The notes under the pieces were generated by a model. The model was not told the DNA's origin. It saw only the letters and a program-made list of their open reading frames with translations, and ran no database searches. A program made the position numbers and the translations under genes. From Spirochaetota bacterium (GTDB lineage: Bacteria > Spirochaetota > UBA4802 > UBA5550), in contig JAFGJK010000142.1 of the NCBI GenBank assembly GCA_016929135.1, forward strand, positions 2,059 through 66,058: a stretch of DNA of 64,000 bases, in the 5' to 3' direction. This document shows, piece after piece, positions 1 to 20,400 of this stretch. The stretch's first letter is position 1. Each line of letters opens with the position of its first letter.

Positions 1-501
1 CCGGAGGACGTGAAGGCCGTTTTTCTCACTCATTCGGACCAGGAACATGCCGGCGGGGCGATCAACTTCCCCAATGCCAAGATCTATATCGGCAAGGATG
101 AGGTGCAGATGATCGACGGTACCACCGGGAGGGTGCCGTGGCCGCTGTCGATCGTCTATTACAACGAACTGAAAGTGCCTTACGAGACCTTGGAGGACGG
201 CCAGGTGGTGGATGTGTGCGGCCTCAAGGTGAAGACGGTGTTCTGCCCGGGGCATACTCCGGGAACCGTGGTGTACATAGTGGGGGACAAGCTCATTGCC
301 GGCGATTCCATGGGCTTGAAGGACGGCCGCATCGTTGGCTTCAACGAGTATCTCTTTGTCAATATGGATGTTGAACGCATGAATCGATCGATACGGGATA
401 TTCTGGCGAAGCTTCCCGGCATCACGCAAATCCTGACGATGCATTTCGGTATGACCAGTGACGTCGACAAGGCATTCGAGAATTGGAGAAGAAAGCGGTG
501 A
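1..501 (+). CDS. MBL-fold metallo-hydrolase, 5'-truncated by the window edge (paralog of 15930..16709)
   Basis: The frame is open from nt 1 (PEDVKAVFLTHSDQEHAG...). It has the CPGHTPG His motif and is collinear with the C-terminal two thirds of ORF 15930..16709. Confidence 0.85.
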   Translation, partial: PEDVKAVFLTHSDQEHAGGAINFPNAKIYIGKDEVQMIDGTTGRVPWPLSIVYYNELKVPYETLEDGQVVDVCGLKVKTVFCPGHTPGTVVYIVGDKLIAGDSMGLKDGRIVGFNEYLFVNMDVERMNRSIRDILAKLPGITQILTMHFGMTSDVDKAFENWRRKR

Positions 502-522: not shown

Positions 523-1287
523 ATGAATAAAAGAAACGGGAACTGGAAGAAACGGTCGCTGGTGATCTCCAGCCTGCTTCTTGTCCTGGCGATTGCATTA
601 TTCGGGACGTACAAATACGTCAGAACCCAGCATCGCAAACACTACCATCCCCTGGAGACGCAGGAGGTCTTTCCCGGCGTCTATACGATTCGGGACGATT
701 ACGTCAACGCCTGGTTCATCAGGAGCGACTGCGGCCTCGTGGCGATGGACACTGCGATGCACGCGGGCACCATCAGGCGGGAGATGGCGAAGCTCAACCT
801 GCGTCCCGAGGAGGTCAGGGCGGTGTTCCTCTCCCATACCGACGTGGAGCACGCCGGGGAGCTCAAGGTGTTCCCCAACGCGAAGGTGTACATGGCCCGG
901 GAGGAGGTTCAGATGGTGGACGGTACGACGTACAGGGTGCCTGTGCTGTTCATGAAGAACAGCATCTCCGTCCCCTACGTCACTCTCGTTGACGGACAGG
1001 TGATGGACCTGTGCGGCGTGAAGATCAGATGCATCCTCACACCGGGGCACACGCCGGGATCCATGTCCTATGTGGTGAACGACACGCTGCTTTTCGGAGG
1101 GGATACCCTGAACATGAGAAACGGCAGGATCGAGGTGTTGGACAAGGGCTTCGTCAACATGGACCTTGATACGATGATGAAGTCCATCACAAGGCTCTCG
1201 AAACTGACCGGTATTCGGTATGTGCTCACACTGCACTTCGGGTATGCCGAATTTCAGAAGGCCTTCGAAAACTGGAGGGAGCAGTGA
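523..1287 (+). CDS. Membrane-anchored MBL-fold metallo-hydrolase (paralog of 16737..17501)
   Basis: N-terminal hydrophobic anchor (LVISSLLLVLAIALFG), FLSHTDVEHAG and TPGHTPG motifs, and very high identity to ORF 16737..17501. Confidence 0.9.
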   Translation: MNKRNGNWKKRSLVISSLLLVLAIALFGTYKYVRTQHRKHYHPLETQEVFPGVYTIRDDYVNAWFIRSDCGLVAMDTAMHAGTIRREMAKLNLRPEEVRAVFLSHTDVEHAGELKVFPNAKVYMAREEVQMVDGTTYRVPVLFMKNSISVPYVTLVDGQVMDLCGVKIRCILTPGHTPGSMSYVVNDTLLFGGDTLNMRNGRIEVLDKGFVNMDLDTMMKSITRLSKLTGIRYVLTLHFGYAEFQKAFENWREQ

Positions 1288-1383
1288 AGTGTCGGCATTG
1301 TGGACAGTTAAATAATACCGGGGGAAAGTGCCGAAGGACTGTTACGGCTAAATCATTCCCCCGGAAACGCAGGAGAAGAAAAC

Positions 1384-1491
1384 ATGGGAAAAAAGATCAT
1401 TTTATGGACGCTGGCCTCTGCCGCTGCACTTACCATCGGCATGGCGGTCTATTACGTCGTCATTCTGCTGGTGCACAGGACGTTGCCGTAA
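1384..1491 (+). CDS. 35-aa hydrophobic single-TM micropeptide (MGKKIILWTLASAAALTIGMAVYYVVILLVHRTLP), absent from the ORF track
   Basis: ATG preceded by GGAGAAGAAAAC. It is 23/35 aa identical to the second copy at 17612..17719, with conserved position after the MBL pair and a conserved upstream leader. Confidence 0.65.
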   Translation: MGKKIILWTLASAAALTIGMAVYYVVILLVHRTLP

Positions 1492-1828
1492 GATCACGGC
1501 GGGAAGCATGAAGGGATTGATGGTATCCGGTTCCGGCGAGGACCGGCTCGTCACGGAATTTCGCGACGCAAGTCCCCTTTGCCGGAACCGGGAGCATCAT
1601 CCGGATAGTTTTTCCTGGATGCTGCTGCCGATTATCATGCGGAACGTGCATCGGCAGTTGTGATGATTGATGTGTCGGATACTGCACATCGGCGAGGAAG
1701 CAAATAAGCATTTTAATAAGACTGATTTCTTTGTCAAATATCCGATGGATTATCGATTTCGCGGGAATGGCGGGACATTTATTTGAATATTCAGTTTGAT
1801 AAAAGTCTAAACGGTATTGAGAGAATTT

Positions 1829-2869: not shown

Positions 2870-3038
2870 CGGAGTGAATTTGATGCGCATTGTCATCTCT
2901 CGATTCAGCTATATTTATGCTGAACAAATTTTGGATAAGGGCGATTGGAATTGAAGAGCTGCACCTTTAAGAAATTTAACCGTGTCAGCGAATATCGCAG
3001 TACGGTCCACTACTACTGGAGTGTCGGAGGATTTTCGT

Positions 3039-4133
3039 ATGTACTGTTTATATCCAACGGCCAAGATAATCATCATATCGGGAATCGTAATCAACAGCTT
3101 TACCGCTATTGAACATATCACCGGCCAGCCGAGAGGGAGACGTAATTATTTCCGGTTTGTGAGGGGTATTATCATAAGCGTGTTGATTGCACAACTTGGC
3201 CTGATCGGTTTCGGATATCACCGTGAACATCCCTGTGCGCTTTTCCCATTTCTCACTTTCCTTTATCTCTTCGGTCCCCTCTGGTACATCCGGTATCACA
3301 AATTTCTTAATCCCGGGAGAAAAGTACCCCGCCGGTACGTGCTATCCCTCCTGCCGGCGTTTCCAATATTCATAATTGAACTTTATATACAATCATTGCC
3401 GCGTCCGCGCAAGTATTTCCTTTTTCGGGAATTTTTCAGGAATCCGCTCGAACATTGGATTATATATGTTTTTTTTTCATGTATACTTGTCCTTGTCTCT
3501 TATGCCTGTATGCTCCTGTATGTTCAGATAGGTTTCCTTAAGGATAATATCCTGAAACAACCTCTGCGTCTTTCAATCTTGATATCCACACTCTTTCTGG
3601 CATCGGTGGTCATTATATGCATGTATTGGATAACCATGAATCCCGATTATGTGCTTATTGGCGACAGCATGCTCAGTTCGCTGGTGATTATCTATTTTCT
3701 ATTTAAAAACCGTTTTCCGATATTTTTCCAGCTTCTCACGAAAGAGATCCGGCAGAAACGTTACCGTCAATCCCTCCTGAAAAAGCATGATCGAGAGGTA
3801 ATACATGAACGACTTGCGGAACTCATGAATGATGAGAAATTATACCAGGACATGGACCTGCGCATCAGTGACGTGGCGTCTCAATTGATGATAACCACAC
3901 ACCAGCTTTCGCAGCTGATAAACGAGCGCAATAAAACCGATTTCCGCAACTTCGTGAATCGTTTTCGCATAGAGGAGGCAACGAAACTCCTCTTCGAGGA
4001 GCATGATCGCAGCATCATCTCGATATGCTTTCATGTCGGCTTCAATTCAAAGGCGGCCTTCAATAAGACATTCAAGAAAATGATGGGATGTTCTCCCAAG
4101 GAATTCAGGGAAAATAGTAGTAAACAATTATAA
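3039..4133 (+). CDS. AraC-family transcriptional regulator with a polytopic membrane N-terminal domain (AraC1, the divergent member)
   Basis: The C-terminal HTH_18/AraC signature reads ...THQLSQLINERNKTDFRNFVNRFRIEEATKLL...CFHVGFNSKAAFNKTFKKMMGCSPKEFR. There are multiple hydrophobic helices upstream. ATG 3039 follows GGAGG; GTG 2982 is an alternative start. Confidence 0.85.
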   Translation: MYCLYPTAKIIIISGIVINSFTAIEHITGQPRGRRNYFRFVRGIIISVLIAQLGLIGFGYHREHPCALFPFLTFLYLFGPLWYIRYHKFLNPGRKVPRRYVLSLLPAFPIFIIELYIQSLPRPRKYFLFREFFRNPLEHWIIYVFFSCILVLVSYACMLLYVQIGFLKDNILKQPLRLSILISTLFLASVVIICMYWITMNPDYVLIGDSMLSSLVIIYFLFKNRFPIFFQLLTKEIRQKRYRQSLLKKHDREVIHERLAELMNDEKLYQDMDLRISDVASQLMITTHQLSQLINERNKTDFRNFVNRFRIEEATKLLFEEHDRSIISICFHVGFNSKAAFNKTFKKMMGCSPKEFRENSSKQL

Positions 4134-14614: not shown

Positions 14615-15685
14615 ATGGACCTTTTTAAAACCGTGAACTTTATCGGGGCGGTGCAGGGGATGGCGGTATTCCTGATTCTCGCCTTCAGCGGAAAGACGCG
14701 CAGGATGCCGAACCTTCTGCTGTCCGCCGCAGTGTTTCTCCTGTCGCTCAATCTCCTGCTCGATTACTTCTTCCATAGAAACGTCCCGATCATGTACGTA
14801 AAGGACACCTTCTTTCACATATTGATCGCCTTCGCCTGCGGTCCCTTTATTTACCTGTATGTGCGTTCCATTGCAGGATCATATCCGCCTGCCGCGAGGA
14901 AAATCATATCGTACTTTGCCCCCTTTATGCTCGCATCCCTCTTTGTCCTGGTATGCGCATGGAAGCCTTTCGGCCCCGTACTCTACCGGTATTATTTCCT
15001 TGCAGAGCTTTCGTCGCTACTGTGTTTTCTGGTCTTTCTCGTTTTCTCGATCGCTGCGGTGTACCGATACGAGAGATCCATCAGGGATGCCTATTCTAAT
15101 ATCGAGAAGATGAGCCTGCGCTGGCTCCAATTTCTGGTGTATTCCATGGCGATAATCCTTCTCTTCGCCGCGGCACTGTATCTGATGGGACGGGATTTCA
15201 AGTTGATATGGATATTGCTCTCGCTGCTGATGTACGTGATCGGTTATTTTACCTTAAGGAGGCCGGAGATACTGTTGGGGGAGATGGGAAAAAACCGTAG
15301 CGATAAATACGCCACCTCACCGCTGACTGCGGATTTCATCAGCAAGAGCAGGCGTGCCATCGACACGATTATGGAGGAGGAGAAGGTGTACCTGAACAGC
15401 GAGATCACCCTGCCGGTGCTGGCAGGGAAGCTCGCAATGCCGGTGCATCATCTGTCGCAGGTTATCAACCAGGCGTATCACAAGAATTTCTTCGAGTTCA
15501 TCAGCCATCACCGGATCATGGCGGCCAGGGAGATGCTATCCTCGCCGGTGGGGGGAGATCAGAGGATCGTCGACGTATGCTACCGTGTCGGATTCAACAC
15601 CGTGTCGGCCTTCAACAAGTCCTTCAAGAAGATCACCGGCCTGACGCCCACGCAGTTCAGGAATAGGAATTGCCGTATCCCGTAG
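14615..15685 (+). CDS. 7-TM membrane-integrated AraC-family regulator (AraC2)
   Basis: About 7 hydrophobic helices in the first ~215 aa, followed by LPVLAGKLAMPVHHLSQVINQAYHKNFFEFISHHRIMAAREML...GFNTVSAFNKSFKKITGLTPTQFR. Confidence 0.9.
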   Translation: MDLFKTVNFIGAVQGMAVFLILAFSGKTRRMPNLLLSAAVFLLSLNLLLDYFFHRNVPIMYVKDTFFHILIAFACGPFIYLYVRSIAGSYPPAARKIISYFAPFMLASLFVLVCAWKPFGPVLYRYYFLAELSSLLCFLVFLVFSIAAVYRYERSIRDAYSNIEKMSLRWLQFLVYSMAIILLFAAALYLMGRDFKLIWILLSLLMYVIGYFTLRRPEILLGEMGKNRSDKYATSPLTADFISKSRRAIDTIMEEEKVYLNSEITLPVLAGKLAMPVHHLSQVINQAYHKNFFEFISHHRIMAAREMLSSPVGGDQRIVDVCYRVGFNTVSAFNKSFKKITGLTPTQFRNRNCRIP

Positions 15686-15823: not shown

Positions 15824-15871
15824 AAGCTCCTTATCGAGCGATTAGATCGATCGTCCTGCCCAGTGTTACCT
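15824..15871 (+). promoter_or_regulatory. Conserved element, site B (subtype 1), about 60-105 nt upstream of the MBL-A start
   Basis: The sequence is AAGCTCCTTATCGAGCGATTAGATCG..., with TAGATC-N17-TTACCT. It lies between AraC2 and the MBL operon. Confidence 0.55.
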
Positions 15872-15929: not shown

Positions 15930-16709
15930 ATGGCATCGAGAAGACGAAAGATCGCTCTGGGTGTCGGGATACCCCTGGTGGTGCTGCTGACGGTGCTGTC
16001 GGCGCTTGGCCTTCTCTACTACAGGCAGCTGACAAGGTCGCGTGCGGCCATGACACCCATGGAAACGCAGAAGGTGATGGATGGGGTGTATGTGTGCAGG
16101 GCGGCATGGTACAACAACTTCTGGCTCTTCAAGACGGACTGCGGCCTGGTGGCCTTCGACACCGGTTTGTTCCCTGAGAAGACCAGGAGCGAGATGGCCA
16201 AGCTCGGCTTCAGGCCGGAGGATGTGAAGGCGGTTTTCCTCACCCACACTGACCAGGAGCATGCCGGCGGGGTTGTCAATTTCCCCAACGCCAAGGTGTA
16301 CATCGGCAAGGACGAGGTGCAGATGATCGACGGGACCACCGGGAGAGTACCGTGGCCACTATCGATCGTCTACTACAACGAGCTCAAGGTTCCCTATACC
16401 ACTCTGGAGGACGGTGAAACGGTGGATGTGTGCGGCCTCAAGGTGAAGACGGTGTTCTGCCCGGGACATACGCCGGGAATCGTGGTCTACGTGGTGGGGG
16501 ACAAGCTGCTGACCGGCGACACCATGGGTCTGGTGAAGGGTCGCGCCGTGGCCTTCAACGAGTACCTCTGGGTCAATATGAGCAATGAGCAGTTGAATCG
16601 ATCGATCCGGGATATTCTGGCGAAGATACCCGGCATCAAGTACATCCTGAGCATGCATTACGGTATGACAGACGACGCCGACAGGGCCTTCGAGGAGTGG
16701 AGGAACTGA
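15930..16709 (+). CDS. Membrane-anchored MBL-fold metallo-hydrolase (MBL-A, copy 2)
   Basis: N-terminal anchor (IALGVGIPLVVLLTVLSALGLLYY), FLTHTDQEHAG and CPGHTPG motifs, and RBS GAAGGAGG. Confidence 0.9.
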   Translation: MASRRRKIALGVGIPLVVLLTVLSALGLLYYRQLTRSRAAMTPMETQKVMDGVYVCRAAWYNNFWLFKTDCGLVAFDTGLFPEKTRSEMAKLGFRPEDVKAVFLTHTDQEHAGGVVNFPNAKVYIGKDEVQMIDGTTGRVPWPLSIVYYNELKVPYTTLEDGETVDVCGLKVKTVFCPGHTPGIVVYVVGDKLLTGDTMGLVKGRAVAFNEYLWVNMSNEQLNRSIRDILAKIPGIKYILSMHYGMTDDADRAFEEWRN

Positions 16710-16736: not shown

Positions 16737-17501
16737 ATGACAGCAAATACTGGAAAAAGTAAAAAACGATTGCTGATCGCCATCGGCGTGCCGGTGGCCC
16801 TGGCGATCGTTTTCTACGGAACGTACAAATACGTGAGAACCCAGCATCGCAAGCACTACCATCCCCTGGCGACGCAGGAGGTGTTCCCCGGCGTGTATAC
16901 GATACGGGACGATTACGTCAACGCCTGGTTCGTCAGGAGCGACTGCGGCCTGGTGGCGATGGACACCGCGATGCACGCGGACACCATAAGGCGCGAGATG
17001 GCAAAGCTCAACCTGCGGCCCGAGGAGGTCAAGGCGGTGTTCCTCTCCCACTCGGACGCGGAGCACGCCGGGGAGCTCAAGGTGTTTCCCAACGCAACGG
17101 TGTACATGGCCCGGGCGGAGGTGCCGGTGGTGGACGGATCGACGTACCGGATACCGATCATTCTCATGAAAAATCACATCTCGGTTCCCTACACGACCCT
17201 GGAGGACGGGCAGGAGATGAATGTGTGCGGGGTGAAGATCCGGTGCGTTCTTACCCCGGGGCACACGCTGGGTTCCATGTCCTACGTGGTGAACGACACC
17301 ATGCTCTTCGGGGGGGATACCCTGAACCTGAGAAACGGCAAGGTCGAGGTGCTGGACCGTGGTTTCGTGAACATGGACGTGGACAGGATGATGAAGTCCA
17401 TCACGAGGCTCTCGCGGCTGACCGGGATACGGCACGTCATCACCCTGCACTTCGGAATTGCCGATTTTCAGAAGGCCTTCGCCAACTGGAGGGAGGAGTG
17501 A
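16737..17501 (+). CDS. Membrane-anchored MBL-fold metallo-hydrolase (MBL-B, copy 2)
   Basis: FLSHSDAEHAG and TPGHTLG motifs, an N-terminal anchor, and paralogy to 523..1287. Confidence 0.9.
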   Translation: MTANTGKSKKRLLIAIGVPVALAIVFYGTYKYVRTQHRKHYHPLATQEVFPGVYTIRDDYVNAWFVRSDCGLVAMDTAMHADTIRREMAKLNLRPEEVKAVFLSHSDAEHAGELKVFPNATVYMARAEVPVVDGSTYRIPIILMKNHISVPYTTLEDGQEMNVCGVKIRCVLTPGHTLGSMSYVVNDTMLFGGDTLNLRNGKVEVLDRGFVNMDVDRMMKSITRLSRLTGIRHVITLHFGIADFQKAFANWREE

Positions 17502-17611
17502 GGGGCGATGCGAATCGCATTGCCAGGACAACACTAATTCCGGTAATGGCGGCCATGCCGCGGCATGTACGGGGCCGGCCGTCCCTTCCCGGAAACGCAG
17601 GAGAGGATACT

Positions 17612-17719
17612 ATGGCAAAGAAACTATTACTGGGCGCGCTCGCCGCTGCTGCGGCCGTGACCATCGGTATGGCGGTCTACTACATCATCGTGCTGGTGGT
17701 GTACAGAACTCTGCCGTGA
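17612..17719 (+). CDS. 35-aa hydrophobic single-TM micropeptide (MAKKLLLGALAAAAAVTIGMAVYYIIVLVVYRTLP)
   Basis: It is hidden as the C-terminus of the spurious ORF 17225..17719. It has its own ATG after GGAGAGGATACT and is 23/35 identical to 1384..1491. Confidence 0.65.
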   Translation: MAKKLLLGALAAAAAVTIGMAVYYIIVLVVYRTLP

Positions 17720-17801
17720 TGGGATGACGGTTCGCGGAAGGAAAGCGGCTCCCGGATAAAATCCTGGAAGAGAATTCAATATCGGACGAACACACATGAG
17801 G

Positions 17802-17840
17802 GCCGTGCAGAAACATGCAAACTGCACGGCTCGCATTTTT
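17802..17840 (+). terminator. Putative intrinsic terminator after the MBL/micropeptide operon
   Basis: 9-bp stem GCCGTGCAG / CTGCACGGC with an 11-nt loop, followed by TCGCATTTTT. Confidence 0.55.
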
Positions 17841-18002
17841 AGATTTATATGTTCCGTTGCCATCGTGCATAGCCATTTATAGGCGAGGAAGACAGCTTGG
17901 CTATCGTTTTGCTATACTCGCATTATGCGAAAGAGGCATGGTGAAATTTCCTCGGCTATAGCGATTTGGCAAAATCAATACGGATAAAGGATACGGTGTT
18001 GT

Positions 18003-19250
18003 ATGAGCACAACGATAAGTAAAAACCGGCTCAACTATGTCGACTGGCTCAGGATCACTGCGGTACTGCTGCTTTTCCCGTACCATACGGGTAGAATTTT
18101 CTGTTCGAAATATTTCTATGTCAAAAATGAAACGGTAAGTGCCGTGGCGACTTTTATTGTGACCTTCATCGGGCAGTGGCACATGCACCTGTTCATGCTC
18201 CTGGCGGGCGTCGGTACCTTTTATGCCATGAAACACCGGAATCCCGGGGAATACATCCGGGAGCGGTTCCTCAGGCTGGTGGTGCCGCTTGCCTTCGGCA
18301 TCTTTGTCCTCATTCCCCCGCTCGCATACTTCAGGCTTTTCGGTAATCCCGATCGCGTATGGCCTGCCGGATTCTCCCACGGCGCGCCGGGAACGGGGTA
18401 CAGCGAAAGCTATTTTTCGTTCTATCCGAATTTTTTCAACGGGATGTTTCCCCGGGGCAACATGGAGTGGGGGCACCTCTGGTTTCTGGCGTATCTTTTT
18501 ACATTTTCTTTGATTGCGGTGCCGGTATTCATGTTCTTAAAAAGCGAGAAGGGAAAGAATCTGATCGATACACTGGCACGATGTGCCACAAAAAAATTCT
18601 GCATCTTCCTGTTCGTCATTCCGATTGTCGTGATTGAAGTATCGCTTCGACGGACCTATCCCGGAGTTCAGAATCTCATCAAGGACTGGGCCAATTTTCT
18701 CACGTACTTCACGGTATTCGTGTCCGGGTATATCATTATGGCTGACAGGCGGTTCCTCGAGGCGATCGACAGGATCCGGGGAGTCTCCCTGGTGATAGGC
18801 ATGGCGATGAACGCGGCGCTGGTTACCTCTCTCGATCTGCATACGGGAAACACCAGCTACAGTAGCATTGTATTCTCGGTTGCGATGATCGTCAAATCCA
18901 TCGCCATCTGGAGCATCCTCCTGGGGCTTATAGGGATGGGGAGGCGATACCTTGACCGCGGCGGCAGGTTTCTCGGATACGCACAAGAAGCGGCGATGCC
19001 CTATTATGTACTGCACCAGACTGCGGTGATGACTGCGGGGTTCTACATTGTGAAGCTCGATGCCGGGGTGGCGGTACAATACATCGCCATAATGCTTTCG
19101 GCGTTCGTCGCCGTTGCCGTCGTATACGAGGTGGCCCTTCGGCGAATTCCGATGCTCGGTTTCTTTGTGGGCATGAAATTGAAACGACGGAGTGTTGCTG
19201 GGAAATCAATTGAATTGGAGGAACTTGCAACACCCGGCAATGCGCAATGA
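18003..19250 (+). CDS. Acyltransferase-3 family integral membrane protein
   Basis: The N-terminus NRLNYVDWLRITAVLLLFPYH is typical of the acyltransferase_3/OpgC-like family. There are about 10 hydrophobic segments. Confidence 0.75.
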   Translation: MSTTISKNRLNYVDWLRITAVLLLFPYHTGRIFCSKYFYVKNETVSAVATFIVTFIGQWHMHLFMLLAGVGTFYAMKHRNPGEYIRERFLRLVVPLAFGIFVLIPPLAYFRLFGNPDRVWPAGFSHGAPGTGYSESYFSFYPNFFNGMFPRGNMEWGHLWFLAYLFTFSLIAVPVFMFLKSEKGKNLIDTLARCATKKFCIFLFVIPIVVIEVSLRRTYPGVQNLIKDWANFLTYFTVFVSGYIIMADRRFLEAIDRIRGVSLVIGMAMNAALVTSLDLHTGNTSYSSIVFSVAMIVKSIAIWSILLGLIGMGRRYLDRGGRFLGYAQEAAMPYYVLHQTAVMTAGFYIVKLDAGVAVQYIAIMLSAFVAVAVVYEVALRRIPMLGFFVGMKLKRRSVAGKSIELEELATPGNAQ

Positions 19251-19332: not shown

Positions 19333-20400
19333 ATGTATGTATTGAAGATCGTGTTTCTTGTCGGATCCATCCAGGGATTCATCACCTCGCTGGCCCTGTT
19401 CTCCTTCGGAAAAACCCACAGGAAGGCGAATTATTACCTCGCCACCTCCGTGCTCGTAATGACTGGCATACTGCTCGTCGATTATTTCTTTCACGGCAAC
19501 GAGCCCTTCCGATTCCTGAAGCATTCCGATTTTCATGCCGTACTGTCCTTTCTCCTCGGGCCGTTGTTGTATCTGTACGTCAAATCCCTGACCGGTCTCG
19601 GGACGCCGAAGAAGAGTGCGGTGATACTCTATTTTACCCCCTTTATATCAGTTTTACTTTTTATGGGAGTATATATCGCGTCAGGATTTCTGCCTCAGGT
19701 ATATCAATACTTTTTCATTATCGAGATCTGTTCACTGCTTTATGTGCTTTCGTTTATTATTTTATCCATCCTGGGAATTCAACGATACGAGAGGGCGATT
19801 CGAGATTCATTTTCCAACCTGGATAAGGTCAGCCTCCAATGGCTGCGCGTAATAGAAATCGTACTGGCAACCATCATACTCGCCGCAGCGGTGTTGTATT
19901 TCTGGAAATCCTATTTCGACATGGTCTGGATTCTTGTGGCGCTCATGATCTATATCATAAGCTATTATACGTTGCGAAAGCCTGATATTTTTTCCGGGAC
20001 GGTGGCAGAGGAGGGTGTGAAAAAATATCAAAAGTCCTCGTTGAATTCGAAGATTCTGCAGGACAACAAGATGAAAATCGATAAAATAATGAAAGAAGAG
20101 AAAGTGTACATGGACAGCGAGATCACGCTGCCGATGTTGGCGGAGAAACTCTCCCTCCCGGTGCATCATCTGTCGCAGATAATCAATCAGGCATACAACA
20201 AGAGTTTTTATGAATTCATAAGCTTGTATAGAATCGAACAGGCAAAGGAACTGATCCTTTCATCGAAGGACGAAGATATAAGGATCATGAACATATGCTT
20301 TCAGGTCGGTTTCAATACGATTTCTTCCTTCAACAAGTCTTTCAAGAAATTCACCGGATTGACCCCCACGCAGTTCAGGAATAAAAAGCATCACTCATAG
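19333..20400 (+). CDS. 7-TM membrane-integrated AraC-family regulator (AraC3)
   Basis: The N-terminus is close to AraC4 (GSIQGFITSLALFSFGKTHRKANYYL). The C-terminal AraC HTH reads LPVHHLSQIINQAYNKSFYEFISLYRIEQAKEL...GFNTISSFNKSFKKFTGLTPTQFR. Confidence 0.9.
   Translation: MYVLKIVFLVGSIQGFITSLALFSFGKTHRKANYYLATSVLVMTGILLVDYFFHGNEPFRFLKHSDFHAVLSFLLGPLLYLYVKSLTGLGTPKKSAVILYFTPFISVLLFMGVYIASGFLPQVYQYFFIIEICSLLYVLSFIILSILGIQRYERAIRDSFSNLDKVSLQWLRVIEIVLATIILAAAVLYFWKSYFDMVWILVALMIYIISYYTLRKPDIFSGTVAEEGVKKYQKSSLNSKILQDNKMKIDKIMKEEKVYMDSEITLPMLAEKLSLPVHHLSQIINQAYNKSFYEFISLYRIEQAKELILSSKDEDIRIMNICFQVGFNTISSFNKSFKKFTGLTPTQFRNKKHHS

Follow-up and report, generated by a model that had tools for sequence, protein, structure and literature searches.

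A new and rare family of predicted single-helix membrane proteins encoded beside anchored MBL-fold hydrolase genes in uncultured spirochaetes

The window, a stretch of 64,000 nucleotides from a Spirochaetota bacterium, carries two copies of a 35-codon gene located 3' of genes encoding MBL-fold proteins with an N-terminal membrane anchor. This gene founds a new family, small and rare, of predicted single-helix membrane proteins in uncultured spirochaetes and, in all loci with readable context, occurs in strict linkage with such MBL genes. Judged from its pattern of substitution, it is at least virtually certain that the small open reading frame is a real, translated gene. The fuller statement, in which a genuine single-helix gene encodes an accessory membrane partner of the anchored MBL hydrolases, is the one toward which we lean, if only slightly. 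Small membrane proteins are under-annotated and few of them have a defined partner, and a new narrow family with a fixed genomic partner offers an experimental handle on them. The impact is limited, as the family is rare (ten sequences, from uncultured spirochaetes and metagenome contigs) and accessory micropeptides are already an established concept.

The small gene and its coding signature

The two copies of the gene, their start regions and the spacers which separate them from the upstream MBL-B genes are located as follows.

17612..17719, + strand: small-protein gene, copy 2; 35 codons plus TGA; product MAKKLLLGALAAAAAVTIGMAVYYIIVLVVYRTLP (translation, codon-level conservation, AF2)
1384..1491, + strand: small-protein gene, copy 1; 35 codons plus TAA; product MGKKIILWTLASAAALTIGMAVYYVVILLVHRTLP (translation; exact match in a Logan gene call)
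17588..17604, + strand: conserved Shine-Dalgarno block CCCGGAAACGCAGGAGA, copy 2; GGAG 8 nt before the ATG
1360..1376, + strand: identical 17-nt Shine-Dalgarno block CCCGGAAACGCAGGAGA, copy 1
17502..17611, + strand: spacer between MBL-B and the small gene, copy 2; 110 nt, untranslated
1288-1383: spacer between MBL-B and the small gene, copy 1

Both 35-residue peptides quoted in the initial annotation are exact translations of 1384-1491 and 17612-17719, and alignment bore out its count of 23/35 identical residues (66%) as well as the TIGMAVYY and RTLP segments common to both copies. A conserved block of 16 nt had also been reported before each ATG; the block is indeed identical in both copies, but it extends over 17 nt. 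In copy 2, its 5' part constitutes the 3' arm of a predicted hairpin. When the two copies are compared, identity amounts to 85% at the 3' end of MBL-B, to 83% over the 24 nt before the ATG and to 71% at the nucleotide level, with zero gaps, across the small ORF. It is only 38%, with gaps, in the flank downstream of the small ORF and likewise in the rest of the spacer, whose divergence had been correctly described.

Copy 2 had been said to be masked by a spurious 164-aa ORF, and it does lie in frame inside a GTG-initiated ORF (17225-17719) which overlaps MBL-B in a different frame. This longer ORF is spurious, because a stop codon stands directly before the ATG in the homologous locus of a second genome, G006, where the open frame is limited to 36 codons. 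The description of the gene as unannotated holds in part: members of the family have already been called by the JGI and Logan gene callers and in an NCBI metagenome assembly gene set, where they are named at most "hypothetical protein". The exact copy 1 peptide itself is present, without a name, in a Logan assembly gene call.

A codon-by-codon analysis was performed on five DNA copies from different sources, with a GC content ranging from 42 to 57%. Frameshifts or stops in orthologous loci had been proposed as the sign of a frame that is not a gene; the small frame proved to be open in 5/5 copies, and frame +1 is the sole frame open in all of them. Among 13 invariant amino-acid columns, 11 are written with two to four synonymous codons. 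All four codons are used for G19 and for T33, and R32 is encoded by AGA, AGG and CGG. Pairwise differences at codon positions 1/2/3 amounted to 13/1/16, 12/3/20 and 8/2/19, a bias (chi-square p = 0.0005-0.002, and 0.0005-0.03 over the pairwise comparisons as a whole) in which positions 3 and 1 are favored and position 2 is avoided. Among the three closest copies, Nei-Gojobori dN/dS was 0.09-0.18, with synonymous sites near saturation (pS 0.58-0.72); this is equal to or lower than the value obtained for MBL-B in matching comparisons (0.20-0.24). In addition, an AGGAG-type Shine-Dalgarno sequence is found 6-10 nt 5' of the ATG in 6/6 DNA-backed loci, which comprise the five codon-analyzed copies and L046, and the spacer around it is unrelated in sequence between distant loci. 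Collectively, the pattern across copies strongly supports a translated protein under purifying selection. The purifying selection which had been postulated from the two window copies is thus upheld by low dN/dS, by the variety of synonymous codons and by the fixed length and RTLP terminus in ten members.

It has also to be considered that the ORF is untranslated and represents an RNA element, a leader or attenuator, or the decaying 5' remnant of a third MBL gene. This would account for the predicted hairpins which abut the Shine-Dalgarno sequence in copy 1, copy 2 and G006, and for a peptide composition like that of a membrane anchor. We nevertheless regard it as hardly tenable, given a substitution pattern of the protein type and an Rfam search of the spacers and ORF region in which no RNA family was matched. 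The hairpins are not conserved in the metagenomic loci L041 and L043, and an intercistronic hairpin beside the Shine-Dalgarno sequence was rejected as a feature of the family on that account. In G006 (PAP2) and L043 (GH18-like), the ORF cannot be the leader of the next genes, which are convergent with it, and the genes found downstream differ in every locus. As for a remnant, the stop position and the RTLP motif are invariant in ten sequences, unlike what is expected from a decaying fragment. Furthermore, when the similarity between the peptide and the MBL anchors was scored by Smith-Waterman alignment, with 500 composition-preserving shuffles as the reference, z ranged from -1.3 to 2.4 and was mostly about 1. 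This similarity is no higher than that of shuffles, and the peptide was rejected as a copy of an MBL anchor, i.e., a third-paralog relic.

The peptide is organized as M-x-K-K, 27 uncharged residues and then (Y/H/T)-R-T-L-P, the uncharged run being 27 residues long in 9/10 members. From a six-sequence alignment, AF2 predicted a single unbroken helix spanning residues 2-33 (pLDDT 90.6), and with this predicted helix the peptide has the dimensions of a small membrane protein (<=50 residues, one transmembrane helix). It is thus predicted by modeling to be a single-pass inner-membrane protein with one helix. According to the positive-inside rule, the KK end would be cytoplasmic and the RTLP end would reside on the opposite side. 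A re-entrant hairpin with a turn at G19 was discarded, as AF2 gives an unbroken helix, although this is weak evidence since AF2 favors straight helices for isolated peptides. No helical periodicity of conservation was detected (moment at 100 degrees), 77% of shuffles reaching the observed moment; a conserved helical face serving as packing interface was rejected, the conservation moment being no higher than that of shuffles.

Family distribution, gene neighborhoods and operon layout

A search for MBL-B homologs in a 5.8-billion-protein collection led to further contigs, namely L041 (Logan SRR26541445), L043 (an NCBI metagenome assembly) and two JGI contigs, all of which show the order MBL, MBL and then a called gene of 35/36 aa. 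An HMM built from six peptides was searched against 1.84 billion cluster representatives and matched seven proteins, all belonging to the family, including four new members. In total, ten distinct family sequences were obtained, nine of them 35 and one 36 residues long. All share M1, K3, K4, Y23, L28 and the R-T-L-P at the C-terminus, and A12, I18, G19 and V30 are nearly invariant. The query used for protein homology was the peptide extended by five in-frame upstream codons. Pfam gave no match for the peptide (best E-values 0.41-3.1, well short of the cut-offs), nor did NCBIfam at E <= 1. No profile membership in TorE/NapE, CydX, KdpF, AcrZ or other curated small-protein families emerged from Pfam, NCBIfam and the 1.84-billion-protein search.

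Within the order, the small gene is present in 2/122 genomes. The second one, G006, represents another genus of the same family as the window genome and likewise carries the three-gene module, in which MBL-A, MBL-B and the peptide are all encoded in one shared frame. The gene was not found in the other 120 genomes of the order, in a 400-genome sample of the phylum or in the sister species of the window genome's genus. It was likewise not found 3' of about eleven single MBL homologs (33-40% identity) of the same bacterial family. Scans of metagenome contigs with the MBL-B alignment and with the peptide alignment found no relative.

The small gene is located 93-125 nt 3' of an anchored MBL gene in 7/7 loci with an identifiable upstream gene (copy 1, copy 2, G006, L041, L043, L046 and the JGI contigs). 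Two more short JGI contigs show the same spacing, their upstream gene being cut by the contig end; four JGI contigs are from a single sample. The MBL gene is the sole constant neighbor of the small gene, as illustrated by the following loci.

Copy 1: DJ-1/PfpI, MBL-A, MBL-B, peptide, DUF362 Fe-S protein, AraC
Copy 2: AraC, MBL-A, MBL-B, peptide, Acyl_transf_3, AraC
G006: DJ-1, AraC, MBL-A, MBL-B, peptide, convergent PAP2 and sulfatase
L041: xanthine-dehydrogenase-type subunits, MBL-A, MBL-B, peptide, Aldedh, Acyl_transf_3

Both paralogous modules of the window genome have retained the small gene. Conserved linkage, in a putative operon, with a candidate membrane partner, as is typical of small accessory proteins, is seen in every locus with readable context. 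The peptide had been described as lying downstream of each MBL pair. This holds for both window copies, but the gene is not strictly tied to a pair, as shown by L046, where the peptide follows a solitary MBL-A-like pseudogene. In L046 and L045, which come from two Logan runs of one study, the peptide gene is intact and follows a solitary MBL-A-like gene (identity of 54% with A and 40% with B), with an AraC regulator gene upstream. The MBL-A-like gene (L046:1118-1897) is interrupted by in-frame stops, TGA at codon 113 and TAA at codon 128, both of which are identical in L046 and L045. The upstream AraC gene of L046 is intact, and so is the 35-aa gene located 125 nt 3' of the pseudogene. As this locus demonstrates, the peptide is able to survive the decay of the enzyme gene, for some time at any rate. 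Conversely, L042 contains a solitary MBL-B-like gene (62% identity to B, 45% to A), without MBL-A and without the peptide. Taken together, L042 and L046, one case each, hint that the peptide may go with the A-type enzyme.

Other neighbors recur in part of the loci. DJ-1/PfpI genes are located 5' of the module in copy 1 and in G006. Acyl_transf_3 orthologs, which encode membrane acyltransferases and are 57% identical, are located 3' of the module in the window (18003-19250) and in L041 (L041:6622-7809), two loci which are otherwise unlike. In addition, a fragment of an integrase-core (rve) transposase (L047:2-325, at the start of contig C37, about 1.7 kb before the window) sits beside the DJ-1/PfpI gene of module 1 and is a possible trace of duplication or acquisition of the module.

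The module is also accompanied, in three loci (copy 2, G006 and L046), by a gene located immediately 5' which encodes a membrane-embedded AraC-type regulator. The one of module 2 is positioned as follows.

14615..15685, + strand: AraC-type regulator 5' of module 2; multi-TM N-terminal domain and HTH_18

Regulators of this kind were observed at 14615-15685, 19333-20400 and 2982-4133 of the window, at L013:829-1908 and at L046:1-858. Their approximately 230 N-terminal residues form several hydrophobic helices without Pfam match and are followed by HTH_18. The paralogs of the window are 29-47% identical and head different operons, and in G006 and L046 a homolog of the module 2 regulator (45-48% identity) directly precedes the MBL gene. 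No AraC gene is found directly 5' of the module in copy 1, where a DJ-1/PfpI gene takes this position, or in L041, where xanthine-dehydrogenase-type genes do. These associations raise the question of whether the peptide, produced from an operon under the control of the neighboring regulator, acts back on this regulator in an MgrB-like manner by binding to its multi-helix membrane domain and tuning its activity. Such a function would explain L046, where an MBL pseudogene stands between an intact regulator gene and an intact peptide gene, and the long spacer could permit a separate control of peptide expression. We consider it unlikely. Window operons that lack the peptide are headed or flanked by three homologous AraC regulators, two of which belong to the same subfamily (47% identical); as this type of regulator is common in the window without the peptide, adjacency to AraC says little. 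Moreover, copy 1 and L041 have no such regulator directly upstream, and the peptide is found solely beside these MBL genes.

The spacer before the small gene measures 93-125 nt in ten loci and is not conserved in sequence, the gap between MBL-A and MBL-B being usually 21-66 nt. This pattern suggests that the dosage of the peptide would be set by an element in the spacer, be it an internal promoter, a processing site or an attenuator. A spacer this long and conserved in length speaks against a tight coupling of translation and against an equal stoichiometry. Terminator-like hairpins are found 3' of the small gene, and not 3' of MBL-B, in copy 1, copy 2 and G006. Those of the window are the following.

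17797..17841, + strand: terminator-like hairpin after copy 2; predicted fold with an 11-bp GC-rich stem and an 11-nt loop, then GCAUUUUU
1588..1614, + strand: terminator-like site after copy 1

In L041, the operon runs on after the peptide into the genes for aldehyde dehydrogenase and acyltransferase. From the gene order and these predicted folds, the small gene would be the last cistron, co-transcribed with the MBL genes. An operator-like element, (A/T)AGCTCCTTAT..., was also noticed before MBL-A, at 15826-15850 of the window and, for copy 1, at about 1681-1705 of L047 (contig C37). It is present in both modules, yet the AraC gene is directly upstream only in module 2.

A long stable hairpin (about 1526-1592, z = -4.1) precedes the terminator-like site of copy 1. 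On the minus strand, a sigma-70-like promoter match (1737-1710; TTGACA, 16 nt, TAAAAT; 11/12) points toward the copy 1 small gene, with the long hairpin sitting between the two. Neither this promoter-like site nor a long hairpin of the 1526-1592 type has a counterpart at copy 2. One may wonder, given this strong antisense promoter-like site and given a size and hydrophobicity like those of type I toxins, whether the peptide is a self-acting membrane-active protein, type I toxin-like or a stress peptide, and the operon a mere vehicle for it; in a variant suggested by the acyltransferase ortholog (57% identity) found 3' in copy 2 and L041, this operon passenger would be the partner of Acyl_transf_3. 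We judge both versions to be quite improbable. As no minus-strand promoter-like site is present at copy 2 and no antisense element is conserved, because the downstream flank is just 38% identical, the small gene lacks the conserved antisense RNA of type I toxins, and it is never free-standing as their loci are. Its invariant RTLP and fixed length suggest a specific recognition rather than bulk membrane damage. Regarding the acyltransferase, Acyl_transf_3 is not found in copy 1, G006, L043 or L046.

The MBL-fold enzymes and their candidate membrane partner

The MBL genes of the two modules are positioned as follows.

15930..16709, + strand: MBL-A, copy 2; 259 aa; N-terminal TM helix, conserved anchor GIPLxVLLTVLS...YYRQLT
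16737..17501, + strand: MBL-B, copy 2; 254 aa; N-terminal TM helix, conserved juxtamembrane YKYVRTQHRKHY, SHSDAEH replacing HxHxDH
1..501, + strand: MBL-A, copy 1, C-terminal 166 aa; gene start at C37:1774 (C37 is the contig, from a MAG of an uncultured spirochaete, to which the window belongs), 285 nt ahead of the window
523..1287, + strand: MBL-B, copy 1; 254 aa, 78% identical to copy 2

Between the paralogous modules, the identity of MBL-A amounts to 82%. Assignment to the MBL fold is supported by PF00753 scores of 28-44 bits, above the gathering cut-off of 22.7. The AF2 model of MBL-B (pLDDT 87) contains an N-terminal helix from residues 5 to 38, in which the membrane segment runs into YKYVRTQHRKHY. 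With this protein, Foldseek retrieved TTHA1429, B3 lactamases and PqsE (probability 1.0, TM about 0.6, 15-22% identity), and a PDB sequence search agreed with a generic MBL fold. The specific lactamase and lactonase models of NCBIfam all scored far under their cut-offs for the MBL proteins. In all four MBL paralogs and in the homologs from other loci, H-x-D-x-E-H stands in place of the H-x-H-x-D-H motif of the superfamily, while the later ligand positions are kept, H176, D194 and H238 being invariant in a 16-sequence alignment. This carboxylate-rich site of MBL-A and MBL-B recalls di-iron MBL-like domains.

Conservation extends to the anchors. The mean pairwise identity of MBL-A is 0.63 in the anchor versus 0.71 in the catalytic domain, and that of MBL-B is 0.44 in the membrane segment and 0.83 in the juxtamembrane helix. 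From these alignments, conserved anchors would fit specific contacts inside the membrane. The positive-inside rule gave no answer on the topology of the MBL anchors, both flanks being basic. Rather than acting as independent hydrolases, the anchored MBL-A and MBL-B probably form a membrane complex.

The conserved gene order is consistent with the peptide being a partner or regulator of the two anchored MBL enzymes, as had been proposed in the initial annotation. According to this reading, an inducible operon would run from an AraC-type regulator through MBL-A and MBL-B to the small gene and a terminator, with the small gene translated from its own Shine-Dalgarno sequence after a spacer of about 110 nt. 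The peptide helix would then pack against the N-terminal anchor of the MBL hydrolase(s), thereby stabilizing or assembling the anchored enzyme complex, and the invariant RTLP tail could provide a specific contact at the membrane surface. Judging from this co-occurrence, the peptide would physically bind to the MBL enzymes and affect them. If there is such an enzyme partner, L046 and L042 make MBL-A the better candidate. Some observations speak against the partnership or restrict it. In sequence, the peptide does not resemble the MBL anchors to a significant degree (z no higher than 2.4). The intact peptide beside a broken MBL gene in L046 could reflect a function independent of the enzyme. In L042, an MBL-B-like gene (62% identical) occurs without the peptide, which is therefore not needed by every such enzyme.

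A bolder version of the partnership, which we find doubtful, is a heteromeric membrane metallo-hydrolase with the peptide as its obligatory third subunit. The peptide helix would be bundled with both MBL anchors, the invariant C-terminal Y-R-T-L-P would dock next to the similar juxtamembrane segments Y-R-Q-L-T of MBL-A and Y-V-R-T-Q of MBL-B, and the assembly or activity of the atypical H-x-D-x-E-H enzyme would depend on the micropeptide. If true, this would be the first micropeptide-dependent MBL-fold enzyme complex.

Comparison with known small membrane proteins

Several families of bacterial small proteins offer points of comparison. Type I toxins such as Hok, Ldr, TisB and Fst resemble the peptide by their length and extreme hydrophobicity. 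They differ from it in that its locus has no conserved antisense RNA and sits at the 3' end of an enzyme operon, and in that the peptide has a conserved polar C-terminal motif.

Small proteins are also known to act on regulators: MgrB modulates PhoQ, and SafA and MzrA modulate their sensors. The likeness here would consist of a small bitopic peptide made under the control of a regulator on which it could act back, a membrane regulator adjoining the module in three loci. However, this regulator is of the one-component AraC type with a membrane domain and is not a histidine kinase, and the peptide tracks the MBL genes and not the regulator family.

Closer in architecture are the small single-pass accessory subunits of Escherichia coli, CydX (cytochrome bd), KdpF (Kdp ATPase) and AcrZ (AcrB). 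These proteins of 30-50 residues possess one transmembrane helix, are co-encoded or co-regulated with the complex to which they bind and are routinely left unannotated. The peptide shares their size, single transmembrane helix, co-encoding and omission from annotation. While their partners are polytopic complexes, the candidates here are bitopic enzymes with a single anchor. There is moreover no homology between them and the peptide, whose invariant C-terminal RTLP has no counterpart in these proteins.

The nearest described analogs of the proposed function are TorE and NapE of Proteobacteria, small single-helix proteins encoded with TorC, a cytochrome anchored by a single helix (PMC6134056). 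TorE forms a complex with TorC and thereby reinforces the anchoring of TorC in the membrane (PMC6134056). As in the loci described here, a small single-helix protein is encoded in the operon of an enzyme system with a component anchored by one helix. The two systems differ in that TorC is a c-type cytochrome whereas the candidate partner here would, by analogy, be an MBL-fold hydrolase, and in that the small gene is here the last of the operon, after a spacer of about 110 nt. As no sequence similarity links the peptide to TorE/NapE, the likeness resides in a possible mode of action and not in family membership.
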